Of a DNA stretch of 64,000 nt, positions 3,790-63,575 are shown piece after piece. The position numbers and the translations under genes are program-made. Under the pieces are notes generated by a model that ran no database searches, was not told where the DNA came from, and saw nothing but the letters and a program-made list of their open reading frames with translations. Each line of letters starts with the position of its first letter. The stretch's first letter is position 1. This DNA is from Candidatus Nanohalarchaeota archaeon. GTDB taxonomy: Archaea; Nanohalarchaeota; Nanosalinia; Nanosalinales; Nanosalinaceae. Location: the NCBI GenBank assembly GCA_022729235.1, contig JALDAJ010000001.1, positions 96,001 through 160,000 of the forward strand, in the 5' to 3' direction.

Positions 3790-4463
3790 GGCTGCCAACC
3801 ACCTCCTTCAAAGGAAGCTACGCTCTCCTGCCCTGATGGGAACTCAAGCACCATGTGTTTATCCATGTTTTTACAGTCGTAACGAACATAGAACTCTCTC
3901 TCAGTCTTATTACATTCTTCCCCTAAATAAGAACTCACCAAATCAACTGCCTCGTTCCGGGACATATTATCAGGCAAAGCCAAGTGTACAAACCTATCGT
4001 TATATACTCCAATTTCAATTCCTTCCTCACAGTCACAGGAACTACCACCGCACTCACAGTCTAAAGCTTTTGAAACTCCTCTAGTGTAGTATGCGAACTT
4101 GGTGTTGTTAGAATACTCGCCCTCAAGAAACTTCGATCCAGAAGGATTGAACTTTGTTCCCGCCGTCCTGTTAACCTCAGCGTATCCGAAACACGCTGTC
4201 TGCTCACCGCATGGGAAACACGCGGTGTCAGTTCCGTTCATCTCGTCGAAGTAGAACTCTTCGCCTTCACAGCCGATAGCTGTCAGGCTCGAGTTGACTC
4301 TTTCATCCATGTACTCCGTTGAATTAGCATAGAACTCACTGCTATCCATCAAATCATCCTGTTCAGAGAGTAAAAGGTAAGAAGAGACGGCAGTTACCGA
4401 AATAATCACTACTAACAGGACTGCCAGCAAACCTTTTCTAGTTATCATATTATCGAGCCTCAA
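3786..4463 (-). CDS. Hypothetical secreted or membrane-anchored Cys-containing protein
   Basis: N-terminal hydrophobic segment (start may be 4448); several Cys and N-x-S/T sequons; co-oriented within the operon. Confidence 0.7.
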   Translation of the reverse strand: MRLDNMITRKGLLAVLLVVIISVTAVSSYLLLSEQDDLMDSSEFYANSTEYMDERVNSSLTAIGCEGEEFYFDEMNGTDTACFPCGEQTACFGYAEVNRTAGTKFNPSGSKFLEGEYSNNTKFAYYTRGVSKALDCECGGSSCDCEEGIEIGVYNDRFVHLALPDNMSRNEAVDLVSSYLGEECNKTEREFYVRYDCKNMDKHMVLEFPSGQESVASFEGGGWQP

Positions 4464-4475
4464 TCCAGCACCACG

Positions 4476-5582: not shown

Positions 5583-5667
5583 GGCTTAAGCCCCTGACTT
5601 AATCCATAAGTTGTAGAGCTGGAATATAAAACCAGGTTTTTATTCTAGCGTCCGCAAATTCTGGGCA

Positions 5668-6606: not shown

Positions 6607-6645
6607 AAGAAAAGCTGTTATTATTTTAGATAAGAACGCAGTACT

Positions 6646-7401
6646 ATGGAAGAATTCTCGGTTGTCATCCCAACGCTGAACGAAGAAGATAATATTGGAG
6701 AGGTTATCGACGCGATAAAAGGTATCAGCGACCCTGAGATAATAGTTATGGATGACGATTCCAGGGATAATACCAGAGATGAAGCCAGAAAGAGAGACGT
6801 CAAGGTCATCCACAGGAAGGAGAAAAGAGACCTGAGCAAGTCAGTGGTTGAGGGGTTGAAAGCCGCATCTTATGATAGAGTCGTGGTCATGGACGGCGAC
6901 GGCCAGCATCCGCCAAAGAAAGTACCTGAGATAGCTGAGAAGCTTGAAGAAGACGGACTAGTTATCGGCTGCCGTGAAGAAGTAATAGGCAACTGGGGGC
7001 TACACCGCCGATTGATGTCTCTTGGGGCAGAGCTACTGGTCAAGACGCTTTTCAAGAGCTGCAGAAGAACGAGAGACCCTTTATCAGGATTCTTCGGAAT
7101 CGATAGAGATGCTCTAGACCTAGGCAAGATGAGCCCAAGAGGTTACAAGATACTGGCAGAAATACTGGTTCTCACCGGCATCAGACCTCAAGAAGTCGCT
7201 TACAGTTTCCATCAGCGCCAGAGAGGGAGGTCATCAATCGGTATTTCTTCAATCGCAGATTTCCTTACTCACGTGCTAGAGCTAAAATATAGGCAACTAG
7301 GTAGCAGCCCTCAATACGCGTCCCTCCAGGAGTCACTGATAGATCCGGTTGACCGCCGTAGTACTTCACGGTCTCTAGCGTGTAACCCCCCTGAAACGTA
7401 G
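6646..7401 (+). CDS. GT2 polyprenol-phosphate glycosyltransferase (Dpm1-like)
   Basis: SVVIPTLNEEDNI, DDDSRD, VVMDGDGQHPP, DPLSGFF. Confidence 0.9.
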   Translation: MEEFSVVIPTLNEEDNIGEVIDAIKGISDPEIIVMDDDSRDNTRDEARKRDVKVIHRKEKRDLSKSVVEGLKAASYDRVVVMDGDGQHPPKKVPEIAEKLEEDGLVIGCREEVIGNWGLHRRLMSLGAELLVKTLFKSCRRTRDPLSGFFGIDRDALDLGKMSPRGYKILAEILVLTGIRPQEVAYSFHQRQRGRSSIGISSIADFLTHVLELKYRQLGSSPQYASLQESLIDPVDRRSTSRSLACNPPET

Positions 7402-8822
7402 AGTAGTCCTGCATAAAGAACTGTGAGAAACGCCCCGAGAAATGCGCTTTCTAGCGGACTAGGAGCTAAAAAGACCTTCAGACCGTAAACTACTCCCGAG
7501 GACAGCATTATAGCCGGAATTGCTTTCAGGTATTTACGGTTATACGGCAAACCACCGACCTCTCTCCTGGCAAATATCAGGAGTAAAGTATCGCCCAGGA
7601 AAAAGCCTATCGTGGTAGATATAGCTGCCCCCATTATACCGTAAACCGGTATCAGAAGGAGATTAAGCAGAACCGTGAACGTTGTTATAACCCCTATACC
7701 TAACATCTGTAGACGTGTTTTACCTGTCGAAAGAAGTATCATGCCTGCCGGTCCCTTGACAGCGTTGTAGAAAAAACCTATCGAAAGGACTGCCAGAGCG
7801 ACAGACCCTTCAACGTACGAAGACCCGAAAAGCAAGTGTATTATCTCTTCAGGGAAAATCAGCATCCCTGCCAGGAGCGGGAGTGTTAATGTAAATATCC
7901 AGCGAGTGGAAGTGCTATATACCTCCAGAATTCCGGACATATCCCTTTTTCCGTATAGCTCAGACACCACCGGCATGAACATGTAGCTCAGGGAGCTCAG
8001 CATGAAACCCATTATGCCCGCGATCGCATATGAGACATCGTAAATACCTGCCTGCGATGAGTCTATGAGCCACCCTAACATCAGGACGTCCACCCACCTG
8101 TTAACGATGAGCAGTATCGAGATCACGAACAGCGGCCAGGAGAAAGATATCAGACGCCTCACCGGAAAATCCGGATTAGAGAAAAGTCTGCCCTCAGACA
8201 CTTTCCTGCAGAAGTAGTACCCTGCAACCACTGCTATTGATGTCGCAATTATATACGCGTAGACCGCGCCCGTTACCCCGTAACCTGCCGATATGAAACT
8301 CGCTACTAACAGAAGTACCCCTCCTGACCATATAAAATCATCCATGTATATTTTGTGCTTGGCATCCTGCATACCTCTCAAGAGCGATTTGGCGAGTTTA
8401 AACAAAACCAGAGGAGTTATAGCAAGAGAAAACAATTTCAAAGGTTCTTCAAGAGCCGGTTCATCGAAAACCGAGACAGAGATCCATCCTGACAGGTAGA
8501 AGATGATCGCTGAGACCAGCAGTGATGAGGGAATGATAAGATACAGAGAGGTAGAAACTATACTGCCTGTAAGCTGTTCATCCTCACTGCCCGTGTAGAA
8601 AGACATGAAACGCGGTATGCTCATTGACAGACCAAGCAGAGATATCATGGCAGCAGCCTGGGCTATACCCATTCCTTGGACAAAAACACCGTAAGCCTCG
8701 GGACCGAGAAAACGTGCGAGAATGACCTTGACCAGATAGTAGAAAAAAGCCCCTACAAAAAAACCGGTTATGACTATAGCAGACCCAATACCCACCTTTG
8801 TGAGAGCTTCCTCTCCATCCAT
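7311..8822 (-). CDS. Wzx/MOP-family polysaccharide flippase
   Basis: Many TM helices; LARFLGPEAYG; DVLMLGW..AGIY. The ATG at 8822 is preferred as start. Confidence 0.9.
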   Translation of the reverse strand: MDGEEALTKVGIGSAIVITGFFVGAFFYYLVKVILARFLGPEAYGVFVQGMGIAQAAAMISLLGLSMSIPRFMSFYTGSEDEQLTGSIVSTSLYLIIPSSLLVSAIIFYLSGWISVSVFDEPALEEPLKLFSLAITPLVLFKLAKSLLRGMQDAKHKIYMDDFIWSGGVLLLVASFISAGYGVTGAVYAYIIATSIAVVAGYYFCRKVSEGRLFSNPDFPVRRLISFSWPLFVISILLIVNRWVDVLMLGWLIDSSQAGIYDVSYAIAGIMGFMLSSLSYMFMPVVSELYGKRDMSGILEVYSTSTRWIFTLTLPLLAGMLIFPEEIIHLLFGSSYVEGSVALAVLSIGFFYNAVKGPAGMILLSTGKTRLQMLGIGVITTFTVLLNLLLIPVYGIMGAAISTTIGFFLGDTLLLIFARREVGGLPYNRKYLKAIPAIMLSSGVVYGLKVFLAPSPLESAFLGAFLTVLYAGLLYVSGGLHARDREVLRRSTGSISDSWRDAY

Positions 8823-36007: not shown

Positions 36008-37441
36008 TTACTCCACAATGTTATCTCCCAAGTATCTCTCTCCTCCAAATTCATCAATGTAGTGCAGGTGACCCTCATTCGGATCGATCCATGCAGAACC
36101 AGGACTTCCTTCTGCTTCCTCTGCTACCTCCCATTCTATCTCGACTTTCCCGTGTCCATCGTTAGCAGCGTACTCGTTGTCCACCAGCTCGCCGTACTCA
36201 GGGTTAACGTAGCTTCCTCCACCTCCTCCAGGAGCGTCATCGCTATCTGAGTCAGCATAGGTTCCTCCACCGCCGGAGTATCCCCCACCTCCTCCCGTAG
36301 CTCCCCACCCTGTGGACTGGTCAGTCGCTCCTCCTGCTCCGAAGCCACCGTCATTGTTTCCATGTCCATCTCCACCGAGACCCCCGTCCAGGAAGTTTTC
36401 ACCCCCTGAACCAGAGTTAGACCCGTCACCTCCATCAGTGTACCATCCTCCGCCACCAGCACCCCTGTTACCGGTACCTCCTCCACCGTCTCCATTCGTT
36501 CCTCCGCTCCCTGGAGAGGATGCGCAGCTGTTCATACATGTTCCGTCCCCGCCGTCTTCTTCCATCCTACCATGAGAGTAGCCCGGACTATCCGAGTTAG
36601 TACCGATAGCGTATCCGGCACCACCACCCGCAACTACAAGAGGAACCACGTTCTCCCCATCAAACATCTGGTCGCCACTGCTGTCAACCTTTGCTACGAA
36701 TGTACCTCCTCCCCCTGAAGGAGCATCAGAGTTACCGCTCGTGGTACCCATTTGCCCTATAAGTATCCTTAATTCGTCTCCAGCCTCCAGACTCACTTCG
36801 GCCTCGTATCTCGCTCCCTGTCCTCCATCTCCAGAGCGACTACCTTTCGGAGCCGCAGCCCCGTAAGCATTAAACCGGTATGTTCCATCTTCAGGAGCGG
36901 TCCATTCCTGTATACCGTCTCCTACAACAGTTACCTCGCCTTCAAGATCAGTACCGCTGTACTCCGAGTCACAGTCAGTCTGTGAAGGACCGGAACGACC
37001 CGTCGAACCACAGGTCGTGAAAGTTACCTCTCCCGACGCGGTTCCCGAACCTCTCAACCATCTCCTATTTTGTTCCTCATCTATGTAGTATACCCGAGCA
37101 CCATCAATCCATAAAGAACCTATCGGACCAGAAACAGAACTACCTCCTCCGGTCCGTGGATCATCTCCATCCATCAGCACCCTGTACTCAGTACCGTCAT
37201 AAGCCCAGAGCAGGTTGTCGTCGTGGATCCACGCCGAGCCGTCGGGAGCAGTAGTACTATCGGTCTGTATGTAAGGCGCCCAGGCTGGGTCGGCCATGAA
37301 GGACATCCCGCCGATACTCACAACGATATAGAAAGCAGCGTAGAGCAGTAACGAAGCAGTTATAACAGACTCCTTGTTCTGCTCCGCCATCCTAACAAGC
37401 TCAAACCCCATCTGGTTGAATCCCTTCCTCCTACCCATCAC
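36008..37441 (-). CDS. Exported protein with an ALK/LTK-like glycine-rich domain inserted into a triple 'WI(D/H)' repeat
   Basis: FTTCGSTGRSGPSQTDC...GIQEWTAP..GTYRF.AYGA...LRILIGQMG...GGGGTFV...PLVVAGGGAG...GGGGGYSGG...GGGGSY...GHGKVEI. Confidence 0.8.
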   Translation of the reverse strand: MMGRRKGFNQMGFELVRMAEQNKESVITASLLLYAAFYIVVSIGGMSFMADPAWAPYIQTDSTTAPDGSAWIHDDNLLWAYDGTEYRVLMDGDDPRTGGGSSVSGPIGSLWIDGARVYYIDEEQNRRWLRGSGTASGEVTFTTCGSTGRSGPSQTDCDSEYSGTDLEGEVTVVGDGIQEWTAPEDGTYRFNAYGAAAPKGSRSGDGGQGARYEAEVSLEAGDELRILIGQMGTTSGNSDAPSGGGGTFVAKVDSSGDQMFDGENVVPLVVAGGGAGYAIGTNSDSPGYSHGRMEEDGGDGTCMNSCASSPGSGGTNGDGGGGTGNRGAGGGGWYTDGGDGSNSGSGGENFLDGGLGGDGHGNNDGGFGAGGATDQSTGWGATGGGGGYSGGGGTYADSDSDDAPGGGGGSYVNPEYGELVDNEYAANDGHGKVEIEWEVAEEAEGSPGSAWIDPNEGHLHYIDEFGGERYLGDNIVE

Positions 37442-37444
37442 ACG

Positions 37445-40400
37445 TCACCACGCGTCAGTCCCCACCGGGAGCCGGAAACTATCAGTAGCCTCTATCTCAT
37501 CTGAAGTTGTTTTACCTCCCACACTCAAGTCAGAGTCAACTCCTACCTCCCCCTCCGGCCTCATAACGATATCAGTCGGTGACCCGGCAGACGTCTCAAG
37601 GTACATAGTAGAGTGAGAGTCGATAGTGTTTCCAGAAGTACCAGTGAGCTCCACACCGTTCTGGACGGAAAGCGGACCAGAAGACTCGACACTTAGAGGC
37701 TGATGCATCCTTACCTGTGACTCGGTGAACTCTGCTATCTGTTCATCAGTACCGGAAACTTCAAAATTAGCATTAACAACTTCTACAGGTCCTCCTTCGT
37801 TGAAGCGCATCAGGTCTTGATTATTGGCGTCATCGTAGATCCTGAACCTATCACTTCCTCCTCCCGGAGTTCTTATGACGGGGGTAGTGCTAGCTGCTCC
37901 CGTGAAGTCGATATGTCCGTCAAGTGCAAGTGAATTTGTAGAGCCATCAGAACCAGCGATCGTGAGCTTCCCATTCATCGTATCCCCGTCTTCGTCCACC
38001 CAGTTGTCCTGTACGTTGTACTGGCTGCCGTCCCAGTTCAGGTGAGACCCGTCAGTACCTGAAAGGTCAACATTACCATCACTATCCAAGTCGACAGCAT
38101 CACCCCAAGCAACGTTTACCGTGTCACCGTCTGTGATACTGTCCGGGCTGATACCGTCACCACCTGTCAAATCAGTTGGGTCGCTGCCGATACTGTCGCT
38201 ATCGATACAGACCCAGTTCGTACCGTCGAACTCCAGGATCTGGTCGCTACCACACATCGCATCGGACAGCTCAGAAGTACCTATACTGTCAGCATCTATT
38301 TCACCTGAACCAACGGTATCCCTACCAGCTAAATCACCAGAATCACTGATACTGGACAACGAGATACTATCAACCTCGGAATCACTTACAACACCGCTCC
38401 CCAGAGAACCACCACTACCTAGATCATTAGCATCACCCCAAGCAACAGAGATAGTATCACCGTCAGTAATACTCGAAGGATCGATACCCTCGCCACCTGT
38501 AAAGGAGGCGTAATCATAATCGTACTGGTAATCATAATCGTAAGCATCAATACAGCTACCATCACCAGCTAGAACCTCAGAACTAGAACATCCTGTTAAA
38601 CCTGAGACATCAAGATTTCCTTGTACTTCTAGATTTGTTTTCATACTAGCATCCGCTATCTCACTACTTGTTCTTTCTATCCAGAATCTATCGTGCTCAT
38701 ATGATACATCGTAAATATTGTACCCCCAACCACCTAGCTCTGAATCCGAAGTATATTCTGTTATCCATCGATCTCCACCGGAAGTATCACTTGGATGTCG
38801 TATAACTATACCTCCTCTCGTCTTCAGGTTGTTAGGTGAACCTTGAACATCGAGGTAATCTATATCATCACCACTGGTCTCAACATAACGGCTGTCAGTA
38901 CTACCAGTGTCAAGACTCACAGATCCCGTACCTCCAAGACTCGCACCACTAGCACTGATGTAACTATCACCGCTTAAACCTATAGAATCATCAACCAGCT
39001 CACTACTACCCACAGAACTACTCTGGATCTCACTACTACCCACACTGTCCAGCGCAGCCAGATCACCGCTATCAGTAATATCAGAAAGACCATGGTCATG
39101 ATCCAAGTTAGTGCTGATATCGCTGGTACCGCTCATCGTGATATCTAACGAACCATCGCCACTACCACTTACATCAGTCGCATAGTAGTTCTCCTGATCA
39201 ATGTCTGACTGACTGATATCTAAATCATCCCAACCGCTTCCGTGGATATTACCCGCAACGGTCAAGTCTCCTGCCATAGAGGCATCTCCCTGACGGTCAA
39301 TGTCGAAATGGGCTTCATCGCTTCCAACAACCATCAGTTTATCTGTTATGTCGTATTCGTGAACATTATGCCCCTCCGGTACATTACCAGGCTCCCAGTC
39401 AACAGGTTCCCACTGGTTACTGCCTTCGAGATCCTTTAACTGATATTCTACGGATTGAGTATCTCCCTCTCCATCTCTTGGTTCAACCCAGACCTCCAAG
39501 TACTTGTCATCATATGTATCTCCTCTCACAATTCTTGCTCTCTCGAAAACCGTCGAACTATGGATAGTATTCTGTAATAACGTGAAACTGAGTCCGTCAC
39601 CACCGCTATTATCCCCAAAAGATGCACCGGCCCTGAAATTAATGCTTGAATGACCACAGCAACTTGTATCCATCAGAGTGAACTCTCCGCTCATCCTACC
39701 ATCCCCCTTCGCAATCCTATGCCATCCTTGACCAGCACTGGCAGAATTCTCATATACATTTTCATACCTGTTATCTACGTCTCCAGTATCAAGCTCGGTT
39801 TGACCCACAGCACTGCTCTGGATACTACCGCCAGAAGTCAAATCGTTAGCGTTACCAAAGTCATCCGCATAACCACTAGAAGTCAAACCGCCAGCACTAC
39901 CCCACTGAACATTACCACTAGAATCCAGATCATTACCCGAGTCTAAAACAGAACCCGCATCAACGTCCAGCGTCCTGCTGGAAGATAAACTTCCTCCACC
40001 TGTCAGATGATTACCGGAATTTACAGAAACATGATTACTTAAACGCCCCCAGGGTACAGTACCGGAAGTCAGAGTACCGTCAAGATCTAAATCATTATAG
40101 AACCTTGCATCTCCGTCGTCGTAAAGGCGGAAGGAGACACTGTCGGAGTCATCGTAGAAGTAATGGCTGCGCTCACCCAGTATCCGGTAGGCTAAATTGT
40201 TATCATCGTTGTATACCTCAAGAATTTCTCCACCTGCATTGTTATCCCCCTGAAGAACCACAGAGTCACTATGCCCCCAGTCAAGATCTGAGCGCGTATA
40301 GAACTTATGACCAGGACCTCCCGAAGGAGCTCTGGCATCTATCCTACCGTCAATGTTAAGATCACCTGACGCAGTTATCTCGCCAACATCCTCGATGTCA

Positions 40401-40801
40401 TGTCCACCCATGTCAATGTCTGCGCCTTCCCTCATGTTCAGGTCGCCGGTCATCGTGTCTCCGTCAGTACTCACGTAGTCACCGGATACTTCCCCTGATA
40501 CATCTCTGCAGGTGTAAGAGCCGTCATCGTCGACACCCGCGACCACCTGTCCATCGTCACAGTCCGAAGCGAAGAAACTCTGGATCTGCTGCCCCTGCAT
40601 GTCCAGGTCTCCATAAGCGGTGATGTCTCCTGCGGTGTCAACCTCGAACTCTAGGTCGCCATCGTTGTAGTATTGAAGCGGATGAGAAGAATTGATGTCT
40701 AGAGCCGCTGAGAAAGCTGTGAACAGTAGCGTTGCTGCTAGCAGTACAGTTAATTTGCTGGTTTTCTTCACGCCGGTACCGACCTTGGAAAACAGTTGCA
40801 T
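37445..40801 (-). CDS. Secreted acidic fibre-like protein 2
   Basis: Signal peptide; SHPLQ N-motif; YVSTDGDTMTGDL and WVDEDGDTMNGKL; Ser/Gly/Asp repeats; C-terminus FRLPVGTDAW. Confidence 0.78.
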   Translation of the reverse strand: MQLFSKVGTGVKKTSKLTVLLAATLLFTAFSAALDINSSHPLQYYNDGDLEFEVDTAGDITAYGDLDMQGQQIQSFFASDCDDGQVVAGVDDDGSYTCRDVSGEVSGDYVSTDGDTMTGDLNMREGADIDMGGHDIEDVGEITASGDLNIDGRIDARAPSGGPGHKFYTRSDLDWGHSDSVVLQGDNNAGGEILEVYNDDNNLAYRILGERSHYFYDDSDSVSFRLYDDGDARFYNDLDLDGTLTSGTVPWGRLSNHVSVNSGNHLTGGGSLSSSRTLDVDAGSVLDSGNDLDSSGNVQWGSAGGLTSSGYADDFGNANDLTSGGSIQSSAVGQTELDTGDVDNRYENVYENSASAGQGWHRIAKGDGRMSGEFTLMDTSCCGHSSINFRAGASFGDNSGGDGLSFTLLQNTIHSSTVFERARIVRGDTYDDKYLEVWVEPRDGEGDTQSVEYQLKDLEGSNQWEPVDWEPGNVPEGHNVHEYDITDKLMVVGSDEAHFDIDRQGDASMAGDLTVAGNIHGSGWDDLDISQSDIDQENYYATDVSGSGDGSLDITMSGTSDISTNLDHDHGLSDITDSGDLAALDSVGSSEIQSSSVGSSELVDDSIGLSGDSYISASGASLGGTGSVSLDTGSTDSRYVETSGDDIDYLDVQGSPNNLKTRGGIVIRHPSDTSGGDRWITEYTSDSELGGWGYNIYDVSYEHDRFWIERTSSEIADASMKTNLEVQGNLDVSGLTGCSSSEVLAGDGSCIDAYDYDYQYDYDYASFTGGEGIDPSSITDGDTISVAWGDANDLGSGGSLGSGVVSDSEVDSISLSSISDSGDLAGRDTVGSGEIDADSIGTSELSDAMCGSDQILEFDGTNWVCIDSDSIGSDPTDLTGGDGISPDSITDGDTVNVAWGDAVDLDSDGNVDLSGTDGSHLNWDGSQYNVQDNWVDEDGDTMNGKLTIAGSDGSTNSLALDGHIDFTGAASTTPVIRTPGGGSDRFRIYDDANNQDLMRFNEGGPVEVVNANFEVSGTDEQIAEFTESQVRMHQPLSVESSGPLSVQNGVELTGTSGNTIDSHSTMYLETSAGSPTDIVMRPEGEVGVDSDLSVGGKTTSDEIEATDSFRLPVGTDAW

Positions 40802-41448: not shown

Positions 41449-44400
41449 TCAGCCGACAGCCGCGCCGCCCTGGTTCATAACCTGCTTCACCTGCTTCTCT
41501 GAAAGAGCATAAGGATAGATACGGACATCATCTATCTTCCCACCAAAAGGCCTGGTACCCTCATCATCCTGTATACCAAATAGAGGTCCTCCCCCCGCAC
41601 CGAAGTCAATAGAGCTGATATCAGCATCTTCTCTTGTAACGACAGGTTCTCCATCCAGATAAACCGTCAAATCTGTACCATCAAAGCTGTAAACGTAGTG
41701 ATGCCACTGGTCGAAGCTCCATCCTACGGTCTCACCATCCTGTGAACCATCGACTGATACATACGCTCTTCCCTCCGAACTACCATCCACTAGCATCCTT
41801 ACGTTCTCCGAGCCGGTATTTCCACTGGACACTATACTACCCCATCCACTAGGATGAAGATCCGAATCAGCATAGAACCAAGTACTTAAGGCGAACTCAT
41901 AGTCCGGAATCTGTTCACCAGCTACATGAACACTATCTCCTTCTCCATCGAACTCCAGTGCAGCGCCGCGTTTGTCATCCATAATGAACTCCGCATCGTA
42001 ATTAGTTCCATGATTATCTTCACCGGACGTATCAAAAACAGGACTTGAAAAACTTAAGCTGTCGAACCATTCATAAACATGTCCATCGTTGTAACCCACT
42101 GAGCTGCATCCCGCATCACAGTTCTGAACTCTTATCCTTTCAATATTTGTATCATGCCGTAAAGTTCTCGTTCCTGTATGCGTGCTGTCTCCGTCCGCTG
42201 TTTCAAAGACGTAATCGTAAGTACCTTCCTCCCAGTTGAACTCCACATAGTATCTCGTCCAAGTGTCGTAATATCCTCCATAAAGTCTTTCACAAGTTTC
42301 TGGCGATTCGTCATCGAATACGCACCACTGCGGGTTATCATTATTGAGACCTAAAATCTCATTACCATAGCTATCATATAGGGCGATACCCGCACCTCTG
42401 CTTGAACTATCCGCCTGCCAGTAATACTCAAAGCTTTCTGGTCTTACACCACCTTCAAATCCTTCAGGAGTCTTGGACGCGAGAGCTATCGTACCGTCCT
42501 CAGGTAACTCGTCATCCATCCCGTATCCATCATCTTCCTCGGAAAATGTCTCAGTCATACCTGCCGAATAACCTTCAGCGTGCACCCGGTCAGTACGAAT
42601 CTCAAAATCATCATTGTGAACCTCCCAACCCTCTAAATTACCGACTTCAAAGACCTCATTCCACCTAGGCTCAAACCGCCAGTGACCGGCAGGACCCGCG
42701 TCTTCAGTTGGACCGAGGTTGTCTCGTCCCTGAGAGTAGAGATGCCAGATCTCTTCCTCAGATAGGGAGCGGTCGTGGATGCGGAAATCATCTATTTTTT
42801 GAGGATACTGCCAGTCTCTACCGTCCATCCGCCCTATCCAGTTTGAATCAGAAGTGGTCGTAGCAGATGAAGGCGCTGAATCACAGCCTAATTCTCTACC
42901 ATCCACATGTATACACATCTCACTTCCTCCTTCAAGAGTAGCTACTACATGCCGCCATTCATCTACTCGAACGGTACCCCCTCTTATGTAGCTACCATCT
43001 ACTGTCCATGAGAATTGCTCTCCTTCAGACTGATGAGGTCTCAAATAGAAGCTGTAACCGTCATCATTCCAGGTTCCCTCAGTAGCGTCAAGTATCGCCA
43101 CAAAATCACTATCAAATTCCGGTTTCACCCAGAAGGAAAGACTTAACTCAGTCATCTCTGAATTAATAGAATCATCGTTTTCAATCTCAACATAGCCGCC
43201 AGAACTCCCATCTCCATCAAACTCCAGGCATCTCCCGCTGACGCATTCATTACCTGTTTTCTCAACCGGTCCGTTCACGAGTTCACCGTGGTTCTCGCCC
43301 CCACTTTCATCGACCGCTATATCTCCGGTCATCCTATGCAACGCTTGAACTTCCGCCGACGCGAGGGCGCGATCGTAGATACGGACTTCGTCCATTTTAC
43401 CATCGAACCGGCGTACATCACCATATTGACCGAACTCTAAATCACCACTCAAGTCTAATTCTGTATCCACATCGTCAAAATAAGCGATCTCATTACCATC
43501 TACGTAAATAGAAGCCTCGCCATTATCTATTACAGCGGAAATATGTTTCCATTGTCCTTCAAGAGCATCATGAGGATAGGGCCATTGATGATTGTCATCA
43601 CCTATTCTTAATCTATGGTTGTCCTCATCCTCTCTTAAGTAAAGTGTTACATATTCATCCCAAGTTCCCCAAGTTACCAAAGATTTGTGTTCTTCTGACA
43701 ATGTGTTTTCTGAGGCTTTAATCCATAACGAAATAGTTAACTCGTTTGTATCCGGATCCAAACTCCCTATATCTATATAGTTATCATCGCCATCAAAACG
43801 AAGAGCCTTACCTAATCTTCCATCGGTCCACTGCGCGTCATTCATTATGGTTCCGTCATAATCATTCAACGAGGTATCGTACGCCGTATCACCCGAGCCC
43901 TCCTCAAAAGCCCAGTATCCTACAAGAGATGTATCCGAACAGCTCATGGTATCCGGTCTACCGCATAGCTCGACACGGTCAAAGGACTGATGAAGCACTA
44001 GACTCTCGTCATCGGGTCTCTGCGGCGGTTTACTGTCGCTGCCGAAACGGGAGGCTCCCTGCGCGTACTTCTGTTTGACTTCGTTCTCAGAAAGGCTATA
44101 AGGGTAGATAATGATATCATCAAGTATTCCTGGAAACGTTTCATACCCGTGATATCTGCCTACATATAGGTTTTCGTAGACAAGGTCATAGGAATTAGAT
44201 CCTGAATTAACCTCTTCACCATTCTTATACCAGGTCCACGTATCATCAACCATTACAAAAGTCCAATGAGTAAACTCAGTAGTATCTACACTTTCAGAGC
44301 TGGTAAATGTCTCTTGACCGAAAACCCGGAACTGCATCTCGCCATCATTATTTCTTACGCTCCAAGTATCAGTCACTCCGCCTGTAGATGCTACTCCCTG

Positions 44401-46068
44401 AAGACCGGTCCCCTCCTCAAAAGGTTTAGACCAGAAACTAACAGAGAATCTCTGCCCCATATCAAGACTACTTCCGTCCTCTATATCACCAACTTCTACA
44501 CGGGCATCATCACCATCAAACTCTAGAGCTGTTCCTCTATCCGTTTCAACCCACTCAGGACCGTTAACCAGTTCACCATGATTCTCATACATCGAAAGGT
44601 CACGGGCGATGTCTCCCCCTCCCTCGTTGAAACGCATGTCGAGTACTGCTCCACCGCGAGGCAGACCTGCCTCCCGGATGATCTCTTCCTGGGATAGAGC
44701 TTGGTCATAAATTCTGACGTTGTCTATCTTCCCGTTTAGGTAGTAACCACTACTGGAGTCAGAACCGATCCGAAGACTATTACCATGGTCTATAGACTTC
44801 CCTGCATAACTGTCTGTTTCGCCTATTAGTCGACCATTTAAGTAAGCTCTTGCTGTGGTCCCATCCCAGGTCATCATCGCATGATACCATTCGCCTTCTT
44901 CTATCTCATTGAAACGTAAGTCATCATGAATTCTTGAACCATCTTCAAAACCGATATTGTAAGATATATCTCTTTCACCGCTTTCCTCGTTAACGAATAT
45001 CCAATAACCTTCACCACTGTCCCTCGAGGACATAACCGAGTGCCACGAATCGCTATTATCCTCTTCAATCTTGAACCACCCTCCAAAGGCCAGTTCCGAG
45101 GGCTGAGGTGTCGCTGAAAAGTCTATATAATCATCGTTACCGTCAAAACTGTAACACCTCTCGACCTTGCAGTAAAGAGCGGTTTCCTGACTGGCGCCGT
45201 TCTGAGGCATACCATGGTTCTCGTTGCCGGACCGGTCGATTACTTCTCCGTTCTCGATGATGTTGAAGTCCATGTCAAGGACGGGTTGAGGGGAGTCATC
45301 CTCTTCAGCGCCAGAGATCGCTACTGATCCTTCGTTGTAGAGGGATTTTATCTCGTCCTCTGATAGGGCGCGGCTGTAGAGTTGAACGTTGTCTAAACTT
45401 CCTTCATAGGATGTATGAGCTCCTGAACTGTATGCGTTACCGATGTTGTTGAAAGTGAGACCTGTTGCTATTCCTCCTTCCTCCCCTATAAGCTCCCCGT
45501 TGTGGAAGGCAGCCATACTTCCATCGCCGTAAGACACCCAGGTAATCTTCTTGTATGTTCCATCAAATAAGCCGGGAGCTGATCCGAACGTCGTATAATC
45601 GCCGTCAGCGTCTCTTATGCGAACAGTCTCATCTGATCGCAGTAAAAGAGATTCTCCAACCGAACCTCTATCACCAAACCAGAAATGCCAAGAATCGCCA
45701 TGGTCTGAAGGATTAAACCATGCGGTGGCAGTCCACTCTTCACCGGAATCAAAGGATAAATCCGAATCGAGACTTACGTATTCTTCGTAGTCGCTACCTC
45801 CTTCAAACTCGAGCACCACTCCCCTCTGCGAGTCTTCGATCCATTGCGGGTCGTTGGCGAGGTTTCCATCATTATCTCCGGCGGAGTCATAAGCGGTGTC
45901 TCCGCCTCCCTCGTCAAACCTGTACTCCGCGACGAGGTCGCCGGAGCTCCCTGCCTGGAGTACCCCGGATGCCTGTATAAGACCTATGGATAAAACAACT
46001 AAGACAGCTAGTAACGCAGCTAGTTCGGTCTTTCTTTCCAGCAGCTTCCTGTAGTGTTGTTCAATCAC
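41449..46068 (-). CDS. Multi-LamG (concanavalin A-like) surface protein with six LamG domains
   Basis: Repeated LV.(Y/W).FDEG.G..A.D.S...NHG ... W.H ... G.(I/L/M)D(D/E/N)VRIY..ALS..E(I/V). Confidence 0.9.
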   Translation of the reverse strand: MIEQHYRKLLERKTELAALLAVLVVLSIGLIQASGVLQAGSSGDLVAEYRFDEGGGDTAYDSAGDNDGNLANDPQWIEDSQRGVVLEFEGGSDYEEYVSLDSDLSFDSGEEWTATAWFNPSDHGDSWHFWFGDRGSVGESLLLRSDETVRIRDADGDYTTFGSAPGLFDGTYKKITWVSYGDGSMAAFHNGELIGEEGGIATGLTFNNIGNAYSSGAHTSYEGSLDNVQLYSRALSEDEIKSLYNEGSVAISGAEEDDSPQPVLDMDFNIIENGEVIDRSGNENHGMPQNGASQETALYCKVERCYSFDGNDDYIDFSATPQPSELAFGGWFKIEEDNSDSWHSVMSSRDSGEGYWIFVNEESGERDISYNIGFEDGSRIHDDLRFNEIEEGEWYHAMMTWDGTTARAYLNGRLIGETDSYAGKSIDHGNSLRIGSDSSSGYYLNGKIDNVRIYDQALSQEEIIREAGLPRGGAVLDMRFNEGGGDIARDLSMYENHGELVNGPEWVETDRGTALEFDGDDARVEVGDIEDGSSLDMGQRFSVSFWSKPFEEGTGLQGVASTGGVTDTWSVRNNDGEMQFRVFGQETFTSSESVDTTEFTHWTFVMVDDTWTWYKNGEEVNSGSNSYDLVYENLYVGRYHGYETFPGILDDIIIYPYSLSENEVKQKYAQGASRFGSDSKPPQRPDDESLVLHQSFDRVELCGRPDTMSCSDTSLVGYWAFEEGSGDTAYDTSLNDYDGTIMNDAQWTDGRLGKALRFDGDDNYIDIGSLDPDTNELTISLWIKASENTLSEEHKSLVTWGTWDEYVTLYLREDEDNHRLRIGDDNHQWPYPHDALEGQWKHISAVIDNGEASIYVDGNEIAYFDDVDTELDLSGDLEFGQYGDVRRFDGKMDEVRIYDRALASAEVQALHRMTGDIAVDESGGENHGELVNGPVEKTGNECVSGRCLEFDGDGSSGGYVEIENDDSINSEMTELSLSFWVKPEFDSDFVAILDATEGTWNDDGYSFYLRPHQSEGEQFSWTVDGSYIRGGTVRVDEWRHVVATLEGGSEMCIHVDGRELGCDSAPSSATTTSDSNWIGRMDGRDWQYPQKIDDFRIHDRSLSEEEIWHLYSQGRDNLGPTEDAGPAGHWRFEPRWNEVFEVGNLEGWEVHNDDFEIRTDRVHAEGYSAGMTETFSEEDDGYGMDDELPEDGTIALASKTPEGFEGGVRPESFEYYWQADSSSRGAGIALYDSYGNEILGLNNDNPQWCVFDDESPETCERLYGGYYDTWTRYYVEFNWEEGTYDYVFETADGDSTHTGTRTLRHDTNIERIRVQNCDAGCSSVGYNDGHVYEWFDSLSFSSPVFDTSGEDNHGTNYDAEFIMDDKRGAALEFDGEGDSVHVAGEQIPDYEFALSTWFYADSDLHPSGWGSIVSSGNTGSENVRMLVDGSSEGRAYVSVDGSQDGETVGWSFDQWHHYVYSFDGTDLTVYLDGEPVVTREDADISSIDFGAGGGPLFGIQDDEGTRPFGGKIDDVRIYPYALSEKQVKQVMNQGGAAVG

Positions 46069-46077
46069 TTATCACCT

Positions 46078-48537
46078 TCACGTACATTGATCACCTATAC
46101 ACATCTCGCCACCGCTGCTTGTTACGGAGTTACCCTGTGTATCTATGTTGCTACTCGTGGTAAGTCCGTCCATCGTGAAGGAGTCAGAGTTATCTAGTTC
46201 GGTATCGGTGACCGAGTCAGACGCCAGTTCAGTAGTCCTTACCGCTCCGGAATCTATCTCCGAAGAACTTACACTGTCCATACCGGCTAAATCACCGGAA
46301 TCACTTATACTGGACAAGGAAATACTATCAACCTCAGAATCAGTAACAACCCCGCTCTCCAGAGAACCACCAGTAGTCAGATCATTAGCATCCACCCAGT
46401 CCACATTTATCGTGTCACCATCAGTAATACTTTCAGGATCAATACCGTCACCACCAGAAAGATCAGTATCACCACCAGCAGCCTCAATATCCGTACAAAC
46501 CCAGTTAGTACCGTCAAACCTCAAAATCTCATCACTACCACACATAGCATCAGACAACTCACTATCCGTGACGGAATCAGAGGCAAGCTCAGTACTTCCT
46601 ACCGCTCCTGACGCGATTTCGTTACTTCCTATACTTTCAGAGGCTACAGCAACATTATCACTGCTAATAGTTAAGGCATTACCTGTATTAACCTCCAGTT
46701 CTTCGTTGGTTCCGTCCCAGGAAAGACCTGAACCGTCCATCGAAGACTGAGCGATGTTCTCAACATTACCAAGCCCTACATCACTAGCAGAAACATCACT
46801 CTGATCAACACCGTCAAGATCTCCCCATCCGACACCAGTCAGACTGCCGTCCTCGCTAAGGTGAACGGCGCCACTGAAATCACTGATATCGCCGTCCGTA
46901 CCGAGGTCGTTTGCATCACTCCAGACAACCGTTAAAGTGTCACCGTCCGTGATACTGTCCGGATCAATACCGCTGCCTCCAGTCAAATCAGTATCACCAC
47001 CAGCAGCCTCGATATCGACACACCCCCAGTTAGTACCATCGAATTCCAGTATTTCGTCCTCATTACACATGGCGTCAGAAAGCTCGGAGGTACCTATACT
47101 GTCAGCATCGATCTCCGACGAACCTACAGTATCTAAAGCCGCTAAATCACCGGAATCACTGATGCTTGATAGTGAAATACTATCGACCTCAGTGTCAGTT
47201 ACCACGCCCGAGTCCAGGCTACCTCCTGTAGATAAATCGTTTGCATCAGTCCAGTCAACGCTCCACGTCTCCGCGGAACTACCATCATAACTGGAACCGG
47301 TCAGACCTGAGTCAGGACTCAAGGAACTCAGACTGACATCGTACTCCTCATTAGTACCGTCCCAAACCAGTTCATCACCGGCATGGTCACTGAGCGGTAT
47401 ATCATCCGCGTTAACCTCGCTCTGATCCATCGATGTGTCATCCCAGTCGATACCAGAGGGATCGACGTTCAACGTCGTGGAACCTCCTAACGCAACTTCA
47501 CCGCCACCAGTCAGGTGATCTCCTGAAGAATAAGTCACCGAGTCATCAACCAGTTCATCACTACCAACCTCATTACTCCCGATCTCACTAGAACCGACAG
47601 CACCACTAGAAATCTGACCAGAATCAACAATACCGGTTCCCGTAAGATCGCCTATATCAATAATATCGTTTCCACCCATGTCGATGTCGGCGCCTTCTCT
47701 CATGTTCAAGTCACCGGTCATCGTGTCTCCGTCAGTACTCACGTAGTCACCGGAAACCTCTCCTGATACATCCCTGCAGTTGTACGTACCGTCATCATCT
47801 ACACCCGCAACCACCTCTCCCGGATCACAGTCAGCAGCAAAAAAGTTCTCAATACTCTGACCACTCATATCCAGGTCAGCATTAGTCATTTCAAGTGTTC
47901 CTGGGAGATCTTCGGAAGTTCGGTAATTTATAGCCCCATAATCACCTTCCATATCCCGTATTTGAACAGGCTCATCTGGGTATGCTCGAATGCGATGCCC
48001 AACCCCTGAAACAAGATTAACGCCGATGATCCCCGCGTCATTGAAAATTTGCGTAGCGTCCGAATGCATACGGACTCGTTGTATCCCGCTACCATCCTCG
48101 ATAGACTGCCCTGTGCCAAGACGGAGATCACCACTAGGGATCTCAACGTCTCCACCTTCCTGGAACCGGGCGATGTCAACCGGGTCATCTCCAGATGTAT
48201 CGACTATCTCCAGGTCTCGTCCCTCGGTCTCTATCTGGTCGAGTTCTTTAAGTTCGCTGCCGGACATGTCGATGCCGTCGAATACCCTCCACTCGACCTC
48301 ACCAGAGTCCCAGAGCATGATGTCCTCTCCAACAGAGTCCTGGAAGACCAGATCTGATCCATCTGCTATCAGTGCATCAGTATGAACTCCGGAAATGTTG
48401 AAAATCTCTCTTTCAGACATGTTGAGATCCTTGTCTACCGGATCTATATGGCTGAGAGGGTGTCTAGGCTCTTCCTGCGCAACTGCCAGAGGTACGGCTA
48501 AAATTACTACAGCCAGGGTTACAGCTATCTTATTCAT
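46078..48537 (-). CDS. Secreted acidic fibre-like protein 3
   Basis: Signal peptide; RHPLSHIDPVDKDL; YVSTDGDTMTGDL; internal repeats LSDAMC..DEIL.FDGTNW.C; C-terminus MCIGDQCT. Confidence 0.78.
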   Translation of the reverse strand: MNKIAVTLAVVILAVPLAVAQEEPRHPLSHIDPVDKDLNMSEREIFNISGVHTDALIADGSDLVFQDSVGEDIMLWDSGEVEWRVFDGIDMSGSELKELDQIETEGRDLEIVDTSGDDPVDIARFQEGGDVEIPSGDLRLGTGQSIEDGSGIQRVRMHSDATQIFNDAGIIGVNLVSGVGHRIRAYPDEPVQIRDMEGDYGAINYRTSEDLPGTLEMTNADLDMSGQSIENFFAADCDPGEVVAGVDDDGTYNCRDVSGEVSGDYVSTDGDTMTGDLNMREGADIDMGGNDIIDIGDLTGTGIVDSGQISSGAVGSSEIGSNEVGSDELVDDSVTYSSGDHLTGGGEVALGGSTTLNVDPSGIDWDDTSMDQSEVNADDIPLSDHAGDELVWDGTNEEYDVSLSSLSPDSGLTGSSYDGSSAETWSVDWTDANDLSTGGSLDSGVVTDTEVDSISLSSISDSGDLAALDTVGSSEIDADSIGTSELSDAMCNEDEILEFDGTNWGCVDIEAAGGDTDLTGGSGIDPDSITDGDTLTVVWSDANDLGTDGDISDFSGAVHLSEDGSLTGVGWGDLDGVDQSDVSASDVGLGNVENIAQSSMDGSGLSWDGTNEELEVNTGNALTISSDNVAVASESIGSNEIASGAVGSTELASDSVTDSELSDAMCGSDEILRFDGTNWVCTDIEAAGGDTDLSGGDGIDPESITDGDTINVDWVDANDLTTGGSLESGVVTDSEVDSISLSSISDSGDLAGMDSVSSSEIDSGAVRTTELASDSVTDTELDNSDSFTMDGLTTSSNIDTQGNSVTSSGGEMCIGDQCT
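47741..47877. repeat. 137-bp dispersed repeat, copy 2 (identical to 5179-5315)
   Basis: Direct comparison; a more diverged third copy lies at about 40473-40609. Confidence 0.9.
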
Positions 48538-49204: not shown

Positions 49205-49282
49205 AACGCAACCTTGGGTAACAGTATTTTTAACACCTGTGTATACTTCGATTTTAATAACGAGCCCAGCCGATTTTTAGAC

Positions 49283-50206
49283 ATGTGGAAAATCCCTGTC
49301 GCAGTAACCATCATCTTCCTGCTGATGCCATTAGCCGCATCTGAATCCAGCCTTGATTCGATGATAGCAGAGTCCTGCCCGGATGATTACGAACCGGTTA
49401 TCTCGATGGCTGCGCCAGACAAGACTTATAGCCATCCTGGACCACCAGACTTCTTCCAGTACAATTTATGCGTCCAGGGGATAACAGAGACCAGAATCGC
49501 ACACGAGTGCACGGGAAATGAAGGATTCTACCTACACAGCAACAATACCGATTACGCGCACTTCTCAATGCACTCTACCTACAACATACCTGTATGTACA
49601 GACCAGATGGTTACACAGGTAAGAGACTCTTGCCAGCAAAACCAGACCTCTCTTTTCTCAGTTTCAAGCGAGCATAACGCCCACGTTGCCTCTCCAGGAG
49701 TATTCGATAACGAGGTGTGCGGGTTCTTCCAGCCTCCGGAAAACGTGACGCTGAGCATGGAGTTCAACCTGACATCAAGCGACGATGTGTACTTTGATGA
49801 ACAGACTGTAGATGAGGGAGAACAGTACCTGGCCGAATTCCCCTACATAGTCTCGGAAGGCGATAATCACGTCGCAGGGATAGTTGCGGACGACATGATA
49901 AAAGTCGAGAGACGTGTCGGACAGGAAAACAGAATCTCGATGGAACGCGACACAGGAGAATTCCTGGTGCCTTTCACACATGGGGACCATCTTAACGTAG
50001 AGAGACGGCAAGAACTTATACTAGAAAACGAGTTCATGGAGCAACTGCTTCCAAGTTTCGGGTTCTTCATGCCAGAACAGGCACGGATAAAGACAGCTCT
50101 TGACACCGAGGTCATCATAGACTCAGGTATAGAGCTTGACCGGGGTTCCCACACCATCGAAATCACCAAAACCGGTGAGAACCAGGTAACTATAGAACAG
50201 AAATGA
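49283..50206 (+). CDS. Secreted triple Cys/His-repeat protein (paralogue of 5668-6606), first gene of the pilin operon
   Basis: Signal peptide from the ATG at 49283; YSHPG, YAHFS and NAHVAS repeats; ATGA overlap with the next gene. Confidence 0.8.
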   Translation: MWKIPVAVTIIFLLMPLAASESSLDSMIAESCPDDYEPVISMAAPDKTYSHPGPPDFFQYNLCVQGITETRIAHECTGNEGFYLHSNNTDYAHFSMHSTYNIPVCTDQMVTQVRDSCQQNQTSLFSVSSEHNAHVASPGVFDNEVCGFFQPPENVTLSMEFNLTSSDDVYFDEQTVDEGEQYLAEFPYIVSEGDNHVAGIVADDMIKVERRVGQENRISMERDTGEFLVPFTHGDHLNVERRQELILENEFMEQLLPSFGFFMPEQARIKTALDTEVIIDSGIELDRGSHTIEITKTGENQVTIEQK

Positions 50207-62884: not shown

Positions 62885-63211
62885 ATGAGCGATTACAAAC
62901 ATCAAGAAATTTTAGAAGATTTTACGGAGAAAGTTAACAAGAACCTAAATGGTAGAGTAGAGGAAGTCATACTCTTCGGTTCATACGCCCGAAACGAACA
63001 ACTACCAGGAAGCGATGTGGACTTGTTAATAGTTCTCAGCGATATCAAGAAGAATGATCAGTCAAAGATTTCTCAGATAGCTGGCAACTACTTCTTAGAA
63101 GATCAACTAGTTCTCTCGCCTAAAATCATTACCTCAGATGACTTGGCAGAGAAGTCAGACTACAGCTTCTTTCAGGAAATACAGGAAGAAGGTGTACAGA
63201 TATATGGATGA
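62885..63211 (+). CDS. Minimal nucleotidyltransferase (MNT antitoxin)
   Basis: VILFGSYAR......SDVDLLIV. Confidence 0.9.
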   Translation: MSDYKHQEILEDFTEKVNKNLNGRVEEVILFGSYARNEQLPGSDVDLLIVLSDIKKNDQSKISQIAGNYFLEDQLVLSPKIITSDDLAEKSDYSFFQEIQEEGVQIYG

Positions 63212-63575
63212 AGAACAAAAAGAACTCTTGAAAGCAGCAAAAAAGAAGCTATCCGTCGCAGAAAAACTATTGAAGGAAGAAGAACTGGCAGACTCTGTCT
63301 CACGAGCATATTATGGAATGTTCCACGCAGCACGCGCATTACTTCTAGAGAAGGATTCTAACCCAAAAACACACCAAGGAGTGATATCAGAACTTGGAAA
63401 ACTATTCCGAAACCAAATAGATCCTGAACTAATATCACAAATGTCCCAAATACAATCTCTTAGAGAAGACGCAGACTACGAACCCTATTTCACAATACAG
63501 AGAGAAAGAGCAGAAGAAGTCATAGAATACTCATCCACCTTCATTGAACAAGTAGAAAACCAAATAGAAGAATAA
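63204..63575 (+). CDS. HEPN-domain protein (MNT partner)
   Basis: SRAYYGMFHAARALL, KTHQGV, REDADY (Rx4Y). Confidence 0.9.
   Translation: MDEEQKELLKAAKKKLSVAEKLLKEEELADSVSRAYYGMFHAARALLLEKDSNPKTHQGVISELGKLFRNQIDPELISQMSQIQSLREDADYEPYFTIQRERAEEVIEYSSTFIEQVENQIEE

Follow-up and report, generated by a model that had tools for sequence, protein, structure and literature searches.

A conserved fibre tail and a triple-repeat domain as a putative fibre-tip module in a nanohaloarchaeon and in uncultured tailed phages

For phages, and for cells that live attached to other cells, the choice of the cell to attach to is made by the fibre tip. In the closest described system, the long tail fibre tip of T-even (T2/S16-type) phages, S16 gp38 is reported as a single chain that sits on the gp37 trimer, where it is held by an N-terminal three-helix bundle; the apical Trp residues of these helices insert every 120 degrees into pockets of the gp37 β-helix, and a distal polyglycine-II sandwich binds the receptor (PMC6851490). 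The mosaic adhesive trimer (MAT) fibres of Bdellovibrio, which are displayed by a cell, are described as phage-fibre-like and chimeric, with varied tips that act in the recognition of prey or host (PMC10769870). Here we analyse a stretch of 64,000 nucleotides (the window; positions 96,001 to 160,000 of contig JALDAJ010000001.1, assembly GCA_022729235.1) from a Candidatus Nanohalarchaeota archaeon. It encodes two secreted fibre-like proteins that end in a short PVG-containing tail, and each fibre operon also encodes a protein with what we call a triple-repeat (TR) domain, defined as three GxxWI...HY/WxD...GxER repeats. We consider it fairly probable that the TR domain acts as a socket of pseudo-threefold symmetry, by which variable adhesin domains are mounted on the tips of trimeric fibres. 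All coordinates of the window count from its first letter.

Fibre tails and triple-repeat proteins of the window

The two tail-bearing fibres, their TR proteins and a contrast case are made up as follows.

4476-5582, minus strand: fibre 1, a secreted protein of 368 aa that ends FRFPVGANMY; its last 11 residues (4479-4511) are the tail TFRFPVGANMY
2188-3798, minus strand: TR protein 1, 536 aa, with a signal peptide, about 400 aa of Cys-rich repeats and the TR domain as its last 101 residues (2191-2493, P0001)
37445-40801, minus strand: fibre 2, a secreted, acidic, Gly/Ser/Thr/Asn-rich protein of 1118 aa; its last 11 residues (37448-37480) are the putative docking tail SFRLPVGTDAW
36008-37441, minus strand: TR protein 2, 477 aa, with a leader, repeats 1 and 2, a Gly-rich insert and repeat 3
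37037-37264, minus strand: repeats 1 and 2 of TR protein 2 (residues about 60-135), which start at residues 68 and 108 (about 37240 and 37120)
36122-37036, minus strand: passenger insert of TR protein 2 (residues 136-440), between repeats 2 and 3
36011-36121, minus strand: repeat 3 of TR protein 2 (residues 441-477), GSAWID...HYIDEFGGER, with the motif starting at residue 448 (about 36100)
46078-48537, minus strand: fibre 3, the contrast case, 819 aa, of the same fibre family with another tail class, ending GEMCIGDQCT
41449-46068, minus strand: protein encoded after fibre 3, with six Laminin_G_3 domains and no TR domain

An association of such fibre ends with a cap protein of three Trp repeats was first proposed from the letters of the window and its open reading frames (ORFs); we refer to this as the original prediction. 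The ORF translations agree with the fibre ends that it gave, FRFPVGANMY and FRLPVGTDAW, and both proteins with three GxxWI repeats ending HY(V/I)DEFGxER were found within a few codons of where it had placed them. In TR protein 1, whose gene lies two downstream of fibre 1, the repeats are contiguous (GMAWIE.., GHAWID.. and GTAWID..HYVDEFGDER). In TR protein 2 the first two repeats are of the type GxxWI(D/H)...(W/Y)x(D/Y)...G/QxxR, and the TR profile matches repeats 1 and 2 with an E value of 4.3e-23 and repeat 3 with one of 9.3e-7. Fibre 3 had been said to end differently and to have a partner that lacks the repeats, and indeed no TR-profile match was found in the Laminin_G_3 protein at 41449-46068.

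The genome is a single contig of 1,027,595 bases with 48.5% GC. Among its 8978 stop-to-stop frames of at least 50 aa, the pattern FR[FLIVM]PVG occurs in two, which are fibres 1 and 2, and H[YF][IV]DE[FY]G in two, which are the TR proteins; three copies of G.[ALVIM]W[IV][DEHNQ] are found only in the two TR proteins, with four other frames holding a single copy. A stricter C-terminal tail pattern again selects fibres 1 and 2 from 6567 frames of at least 60 aa, and matches to the TR profile in this genome fall only within the two TR proteins.

The three fibres are paralogues with common blocks (BLASTP E 1e-52 to 1e-62). The N-terminal blocks are common to all three, whereas the C-termini differ. 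Fibre 2 is very acidic, with 19% D+E and 4% K+R. When its last 100 residues were used as a query, the relatives found matched only the first 80 of these and not the tail, so the shared element is just the last 11 residues or so. Pfam, PHROG and NCBIfam hold no family for any of the three fibres, and neither fibre 2 nor a profile of the tail has a match among PDB sequences. The tail was also considered as a C-terminal sorting signal, a possibility that was dropped as no hydrophobic helix follows it.

Long near-identical blocks are common to fibres 2 and 3, and a block of 47 letter-identical residues (DLDMSGQSIENFF...GDYVS) is present in fibres 1 and 3, at about 5180-5320 and about 47750-47890 on the minus strand. 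Such blocks suggest recent recombination among the fibre genes. The ending of fibre 3 also belongs to a second conserved class, C-(I/V)-G-x-x-C plus 0-1 residue, which was found in the window at 46078-46110 (minus strand) and in relatives (L047, G001:C2, 6510-10271; L014, G017, 193-570; L043, G068, 6828-7361). The relatives with this ending have differing downstream neighbours, and a laminin G (LamG) partner is not general. Six Cys residues at a trimer tip could form disulfides or a metal site.

Coupling of tail and triple-repeat genes beyond the window

The phylum was sampled by the 70 genomes in our collection, nine of which contain a match to the TR profile. A DNA search made independently of TR, for PVGx(D/N)x(W/Y/C) followed by a stop, returned 15 matches in 11 genomes, and its reversed control returned 1. 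Nine of the 15 are the ends of fibre-like ORFs and six are not. A TR gene follows directly after five of these nine fibre-type tails (fibre 2 of the window genome, G000; those of G001, G027 and G068; and, in G045, that of the second fibre of a tandem pair), and one gene lies between tail and TR gene in two more (fibre 1 of G000, and the first G045 fibre, where the second fibre intervenes). In G055 the fibre and TR genes are separated by 4.5 kb of toxin-antitoxin-like cassettes, while the fibre-type tail of G033 is 131 bases from a contig end. By genome, six carry both elements, three TR only, one the tail only (the tail at the contig end) and 60 neither (Fisher p 4e-6, an overstated value as related genomes are not independent). 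The genomic co-occurrence that the original prediction had named as a check is therefore seen as a fibre-type tail in 6 of 9 genomes with TR vs 1 of 61 without it. Two further TR genes follow fibres whose near-variant ends fall outside the pattern, PVGEDAYQ in G017 and IPVGTDAGL in G010.

A narrower TR alignment was scanned on metagenome contigs and gave 41 loci with a GC content of 32-68%. An upstream same-strand ORF carries the tail, here defined as h-x-h-P-V/I-G-x-D/N/G-x-W/Y/F plus 0-3 residues, in 24 of them; examples are RLQIPVGTNLYD, RMVLPVGTNLWAT and RVVLPVGTDKWATE. The distance from tail to TR frame is about 50 bases or less in 20 of the 24 and 250-900 bases in the other four. A further 13 loci are truncated by a contig end too close for a judgement. 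On viral contigs the tail ORF is directly upstream in all seven clear TR matches; three further viral matches, at E 4e-4 and with no tail, seem spurious. Over these 51 metagenome and viral loci, the tail is found in 31 of 1322 closed ORFs, and all 31 are on the TR strand and upstream of TR.

The coupling also holds in the reverse direction. When 12 viral loci were picked for the tail and nothing else (matches to PVGT[DN][ML][YF]D that tblastn confirmed), a TR ORF was found immediately downstream in 10, with hidden Markov model E values of 1e-30 to 9e-12; one of the 10 is on the same contig as L108, and the contig of L124 stops 363 bases after the tail. Near-duplicates occur (L083/L105/L106, L096/L110, L127-L129 and L095/L118), and independent cases are fewer than these counts. 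The tail-bearing ORFs of viral loci either match tail-fibre PHROGs, including collagen-like ones, or are placed after a tape measure gene. The 1292-aa tail-bearing protein of L083 matches many tail-fibre PHROGs, collagen-like among them, and in L107 and L109 one or two structural genes separate the tape measure gene from the tail ORF that follows it. A scan of the genome collection with a single peptide pattern gave 6 loci. The tail-TR pair is a module that recurs widely in uncultured tailed phages and in DPANN archaea and is no peculiarity of one genome.

Across loci, tails of the Y/F-D type go mostly with C-terminal sockets and those of the W-A-T type with N-terminal sockets; this subtype match may reflect co-diversification or simply shared ancestry. 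The locus L095, which is the same as L118, has the tail and TR on a 34-kb contig labelled as a Candidatus Micrarchaeota metagenome-assembled genome, a second DPANN lineage, and may be cellular or from a binned virus. In L045 (G055:C76) four tandem nucleotidyltransferase-like/HEPN-like pairs and a PIN-like gene lie between the fibre and TR genes (3620-8148); the window has a HEPN gene at 63138-63575. In L015 (G008:C21) the gene after a TR-only gene encodes a 147-aa protein (7592-8035, minus strand) with one hydrophobic helix, an internal QFRVPVGEKAY and a small β-like region. The PVG tail motif may also work as an internal tag.

Predicted complex, domain fold and passengers

A complex was modelled from the C-terminal 50 residues of fibre 1 in triplicate, with an alignment of 32 tails, and the TR domain of TR protein 1. 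The ipSAE was 0.73, 0.76 and 0.77 in three runs, which had at least 94% of their contacts in common and a partner pLDDT of at least 84. Controls gave 0.37 and 0.01 when the partner was replaced and 0.00 when the tail was replaced. Of 157 solved complexes 116 reach the tool's mark, as do 2 of 215 mismatched pairs, which is a rough guide here, since the alignments were our own and one chain was present three times. Confident contacts with the TR domain run over residues 40-50 of every tail, and each tail lies on a different repeat: the copies of Pro44 contact W12/I13, W48/I49 and W83, which include the near-invariant Trp of each repeat, and Arg42 in two copies contacts the GxA start of the next repeat (G45-A47 and G80-A82). 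Each tail is thus placed between two neighbouring repeats, which gives the cyclic contacts that a pseudo-threefold socket requires. The predicted interface takes in 49 of the 101 TR residues and seven of the nine invariant or near-invariant columns (G9, W12, G45, W48, G80, W83 and Y90), along with the invariant P and G and near-invariant V of the tail. Neither partner has a relative among the solved structures searched, which makes recall of a known complex by the model an unlikely source of the result.

The original prediction had asked whether three fibre ends and one repeat domain would be predicted to associate, and they were, at an ipSAE of 0.76 vs 0.37 for the best control. Its pseudo-threefold cap for docking variable adhesins therefore appears supported, since the co-occurrence and the predicted complex both came out in its favour. 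We hold the binding of PVG tails by the TR domain, as predicted here, to be rather probable, and are less confident of the predicted 3:1 geometry and of the adhesin role.

To define the TR family, the last 101 residues of TR protein 1 were searched with HMMER against 1.84 billion representative proteins, which gave 238 clusters at E<=1e-3, of which 58 reach E<=1e-10. Position was scored on the best 150 of the 238 representatives. The TR domain is at the C-terminus in 75, at the N-terminus after at most a leader in 19, essentially the whole protein in 19 and internal in 4; it is split by inserts of at least 80 aa in 9 and partial or register-shifted in 22, and two have no profile match. The sequences of Pfam, NCBIfam and PDB hold no family for this domain (cut-offs for TR proteins were E<=0.1 for Pfam and 0.01 for both PHROGs and NCBIfam), and PHROGs give a single weak and unnamed TR-related match, phrog_29957, at E 0.0011 to P0097. 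No match to PDB sequences was found for TR protein 1 or for the TR profile. Nine of the ten proteins looked up are unnamed; P0023, a Flavobacterium 'beta strand repeat-containing protein', has 12 single-repeat matches and was not counted as a TR domain. A tblastn search of 50,697 cultured-phage records with P0097 as the sole query returned no match.

The AlphaFold2 model of the TR domain, from an alignment of 36 rows, has a pLDDT of 89.8 and a pTM of 0.81 and is made up of nine strands, three per repeat, and no helix. Strands are likewise placed in the full-length model of TR protein 2, with 3+3 for repeats 1 and 2 and three for repeat 3. Foldseek with the TR model found nothing in PDB at E<=1e-3, and choline- or glucan-binding repeats and propeller blades were rejected as its fold, having appeared only at E>=0.37. 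In BFVD there was one clear match, the unnamed viral protein A0A451ED92 (E 1.6e-8, TM score 0.78). The top ranks of VIA-align are β-prism II lectins, led by LlpA (3m7h_A, Z 4.4, rmsd 3.7 Å over 84 aligned residues), which is within the noise range of the tool; several members of the family score Z 4.4 to 2.6, and the Marasmius oreades lectin, curculin, pyocin L1 and UmbA4 are matched as well. As modelled, then, TR is a pseudo-threefold all-β domain with no clear solved relative. Keyword searches of open-access full texts found no paper that describes the PVG tail or the TR domain. A fibre with a separately encoded tip protein is itself a known kind of arrangement, but this two-part fibre-tip module is absent from the family libraries, solved structures and literature searched.

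The passengers of the two TR proteins differ, as had been noted from the letters alone, being Cys-rich repeats in one and a Gly-rich domain of the ALK/LTK type in the other. A likeness of the latter to the polyglycine domain of gp38 had been suggested and did not hold; residues 136-440 of TR protein 2 are instead homologous to the TNF-like and glycine-rich domain of ALK and LTK. A phmmer search of PDB with this region gave LTK (7nx0_C) at E 2.4e-15, over chain residues 3-318, and ALK at E 5e-12; with the whole protein, at E<=10 over all PDB chains, it returned LTK and ALK chains and two chance rows. The AlphaFold2 model of all 477 residues has a mean pLDDT of 77.2 and a pTM of 0.69, with the passenger mostly at 80-95. 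Foldseek of this full-length model reached the LTK TG domain (7nx1) at E 4.4e-16 with a target-normalised TM score of 0.69, and 21 PDB chains at E<=1e-3, all of those among the matches listed being LTK or ALK. The Pfam family ALK_LTK_GRD (PF12810) was matched below its threshold (E 0.0093; 16.4 bits against a cut-off of 24.5), and PHROGs 22713 and 7388, whose function is unnamed, were matched as well. The Gly-rich passenger is thus a domain of a known kind, and it belongs to a large microbial family, for which a search at E<=1e-5 in the length range of 262-835 aa gave 1296 homologues. The Foldseek rows that follow LTK and ALK are the cyanophage Pam3 fibre 7ypx_A and the mycobacteriophage Bxb1 tail tip 9d93_Qa, both at E 0.015, which is a weak hint that Gly-rich domains of this type may also be found at solved phage fibre tips.

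A metagenome protein of 142 aa, P0077, clarifies how this domain is placed. Its residues 1-105 are 55% identical to residues 32-136 of TR protein 2, and it runs straight from repeat 2 into repeat 3, aligned to residues of about 440-471. P0077 is insert-free, so the ALK/LTK-type domain is an insertion between repeats 2 and 3. Inserts between repeats are present in other relatives, a 973-aa protein of the same-genus genome G001 and a 719-aa protein of G055, the latter with Laminin_G_3-like inserts. Elsewhere among TR homologues the attached domains, as read from their sequences, are Cys-rich repeats, PKD-like arrays, GLUG-like repeats and LamG-like regions, together with an H-type lectin domain (H_lectin) in P0027 and a DNRLRE domain in P0100.

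Proteins with an N-terminal socket often run into His-rich repeats of the H-(T/S)-D type (L105/L106 1161-1865; L107 5617-6597; L109 5578-6627; L016, from G010, 5726-6415; P0093 and P0124). Some phage fibre tips and spikes bear metal sites of the HxH type. If the His-rich repeats trimerise, the TR protein would not be monomeric in those cases.

Proposed function and comparison with known systems

The nine-stranded β-socket of TR is proposed to hold a homotrimeric fibre by the tails at its three C-termini (h-x-h-P-V-G-x-D/N-x-W/Y/F). Every tail would rest between two adjacent repeats, with its Pro against the conserved Trp of the GxxW strand, and one monomeric TR protein would cap the fibre tip. 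The socket carries variable passengers, presumably exchangeable adhesins, on either side of it or within its inter-repeat loops; here these are Cys-rich repeats or the ALK/LTK-type domain, and H-type lectin, LamG, PKD-like, GLUG-like and His-rich domains are among those found elsewhere. The pair is part of the tail-fibre locus in uncultured tailed phages. In the window genome, where it is part of a cell-surface glycan island, it probably arms surface fibres that hold the host archaeon in what would be a symbiotic role. A recurring tail with a socket of about 100 residues would flag receptor-binding proteins that are now 'hypothetical' in uncultured phage genomes, and the module gives a defined unit for the study of natural swapping of binding domains. 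For nanohaloarchaea, it names candidate molecules of host attachment, a poorly understood process.

Several points weigh against a socket at the fibre tip. The score of the complex is the model's own confidence, and one control did reach 0.37. The pair that was modelled is the tail of fibre 1 with the TR domain of 2188-3798 at 3:1, and in the full-length model of 36008-37441 the TR strands are of intermediate confidence (pLDDT about 57-73). The window fibres match no phage fibre family, and a protein atlas gives only a weak viral lead for them (score 0.87, below the 0.9 mark); that they are trimeric we infer from the three-site model and from their viral counterparts. The relatedness of the archaeal genomes has been mentioned, and one of these is an exception, as the TR protein of G008, 167 aa of leader and TR only, follows a fibre that ends NTGNQY. 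Among the metagenome loci, four of the 41 have at least 400 upstream bases with no tail (L080, L082, L098 and L099), and the viral locus L123 has a changed tail (RLKCPVGTDMYD, RLKCPVG) and no TR gene. Finally, a long hydrophobic helix opens many of the TR proteins of nanohaloarchaea, 36008-37441 among them, and if uncleaved it would make the protein a membrane-tethered socket rather than a distal tip.

The TR protein could instead be mainly a chaperone of fibre assembly, or a transient cap that helps the fibre C-terminus to trimerise and fold and may then leave, with the passengers being secondary. We regard this as unlikely, though it fits the order of fibre gene and then small gene that is usual for fibre chaperones, the predicted contacts with the extreme fibre C-terminus, and the 19 of the 150 best representatives that are TR-only and have nothing to display, such as the 100-aa ORFs of L069 and L071 and the 167-aa protein of G008. 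Against it, large extra domains are present in 98 of the 150 (75 with C-terminal, 19 with N-terminal and 4 with internal TR), those identified are of binding type (H_lectin in P0027, Laminin_G_3-like in G055 and the ALK/LTK glycine-rich domain), and TR proteins match no chaperone family in Pfam, PHROGs or NCBIfam. The roles of chaperone and tip adhesin are compatible and can coexist.

The hydrophobic leader bears on a further alternative. In nanohaloarchaeal TR proteins (37300-37441, minus strand, in the window, and P0007, P0008, P0009, P0013, P0018 and P0027) the leader has a basic RKGF-type start, ..AE.NKE.., a hydrophobic helix of about 22 residues and then an AWA|PY or Q-P-x-x-G-Y site; the helix of 36008-37441 is at residues of about 26-50. 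This leader exceeds an ordinary signal peptide in both length and conservation. It may act as a signal anchor or serve for dedicated targeting. Leader-bearing TR proteins (36008-37441, that of G008 and others) might then stay anchored in the membrane and hold the fibre by its C-terminal tail, as the base of the fibre and not its tip. The conservation of the leader would suit this, as would a TR domain that begins about 10-20 residues past the helix and the G008 protein with its leader and TR only. The idea is nevertheless quite improbable in our view, because 2188-3798 has an ordinary cleavable-looking signal peptide with TR at its far C-terminus, viral homologues have no membrane to anchor in, and cleavage is possible at the A-x-A-like site (AWA|PY) after the helix. 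In addition, the fibres are alike at the N-terminus and differ at the C-terminus, and in phage fibres shared N-terminal blocks and a divergent C-terminus mark the N-terminus as the attached end.

Least probable is that TR is a β-prism II-type lectin for host or fibre glycans, coupled to PVG-tailed fibres by operon organisation only: its top structural matches are such lectins (LlpA 3m7h, Z 4.4) and the window locus lies in a glycan-synthesis island, but Z scores in this range are common for unrelated folds, Foldseek against PDB found nothing at E<=1e-3, the QxDxNxVxY mannose-binding motif of these lectins is absent from the 101 residues of P0001, which also has no Pfam B_lectin match, and the lectin would leave unexplained both a C-terminal motif that co-varies with TR across GC 32-68% and the confident tail contacts.

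The socket proposed to dock adhesins onto fibre tips may be extended to a general plug-and-socket system across uncultured tailed phages and DPANN archaea, in which each trimer tip bears a single exchangeable adhesin, tails and sockets co-diversify into a pairing code, and nanohaloarchaea capture their host with phage fibre technology; this wider proposal is tentative, and we lean slightly towards doubting it.

The other genes of the window help to place its two pairs. Scans of 35 other large ORFs found glycosyltransferases, flippases, sugar-nucleotide enzymes, a sulfatase and housekeeping genes. A provirus or tail-cluster origin of the window fibres was considered and rejected, as there is no phage structural family among these 35; the archaeal fibres are for this reason read as cell-surface fibres with a phage-type tip system. 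Next to the pair of fibre 1 are the following.

3786-4463, minus strand: a 225-aa protein encoded between the genes of fibre 1 and TR protein 1, which has a hydrophobic helix at its N-terminus as well as a Cys-rich domain
1198-2118, minus strand: a membrane-anchored DsbA-like thioredoxin, encoded next after the Cys-rich TR protein 1 (Pfam Thioredoxin_4 E 3.5e-19, DSBA E 1e-4)

A Pfam scan of the 225-aa protein found no significant family, and the thioredoxin is possibly a dedicated disulfide helper of the Cys-rich TR protein. Paralogous secreted proteins with no family match are encoded in divergent orientation beside fibre operons 1 and 3 (5668-6606 and 49214-50206, both plus strand), and look-alikes lie beside fibre genes in two relatives (L015, 7037-7576; L047, 669-1592). 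These are candidate base or partner proteins of the fibres.

Among known systems, tail-fibre assembly proteins or chaperone caps are usually encoded as a small gene right after the fibre gene. Work related to such proteins includes PMC10579305, on transient chaperone caps, and PMC9608196. The TR proteins are like them in gene position and in a predicted action on the C-terminal fibre tip, but match none of their families and mostly carry large extra domains. Similarly to β-prism II lectins, its best yet weak structural match, TR is modelled as a small all-β domain with three similar sheets round a pseudo-threefold axis. However, those lectins have four strands per repeat and the TR model three, and a shared fold would be too strong a claim for such scores. 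In the case of ALK and LTK, residues 136-440 of 36008-37441 align over nearly the whole LTK domain and their model superposes on LTK and ALK structures, with E values of about 1e-15 to 1e-16; here, however, the domain is embedded in another one, within a secreted archaeal protein, and is not part of a receptor kinase.

The MAT fibres resemble the window fibres in that a cell living on other cells, not a virus, displays phage-fibre-like fibres. Their tip domain is part of the fibre polypeptide, whereas the TR system would have a tip protein of its own, docked to the conserved fibre tail. For gp37 and gp38, the analogy drawn in the original prediction would stand for function and fails for homology. 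In both systems a monomer encoded by an adjacent gene would cap a trimer tip at three equivalent Trp sites and present a variable domain, which for TR is so in the model. The socket differs in that it is predicted to be all-β with nine strands and no helix bundle, and to grip extreme C-terminal peptides, where gp38 attaches by helices; 36008-37441 had no match to gp38 (PDB 6F45) in the phmmer search of PDB at E<=10 or in Foldseek with the full model. The TR system, as modelled, would thus work like gp37-gp38 and not be homologous to it. If true, this would be a third way to mount a monomer on a trimer, besides the helical bundle of gp38 and tips that are integral to the fibre.

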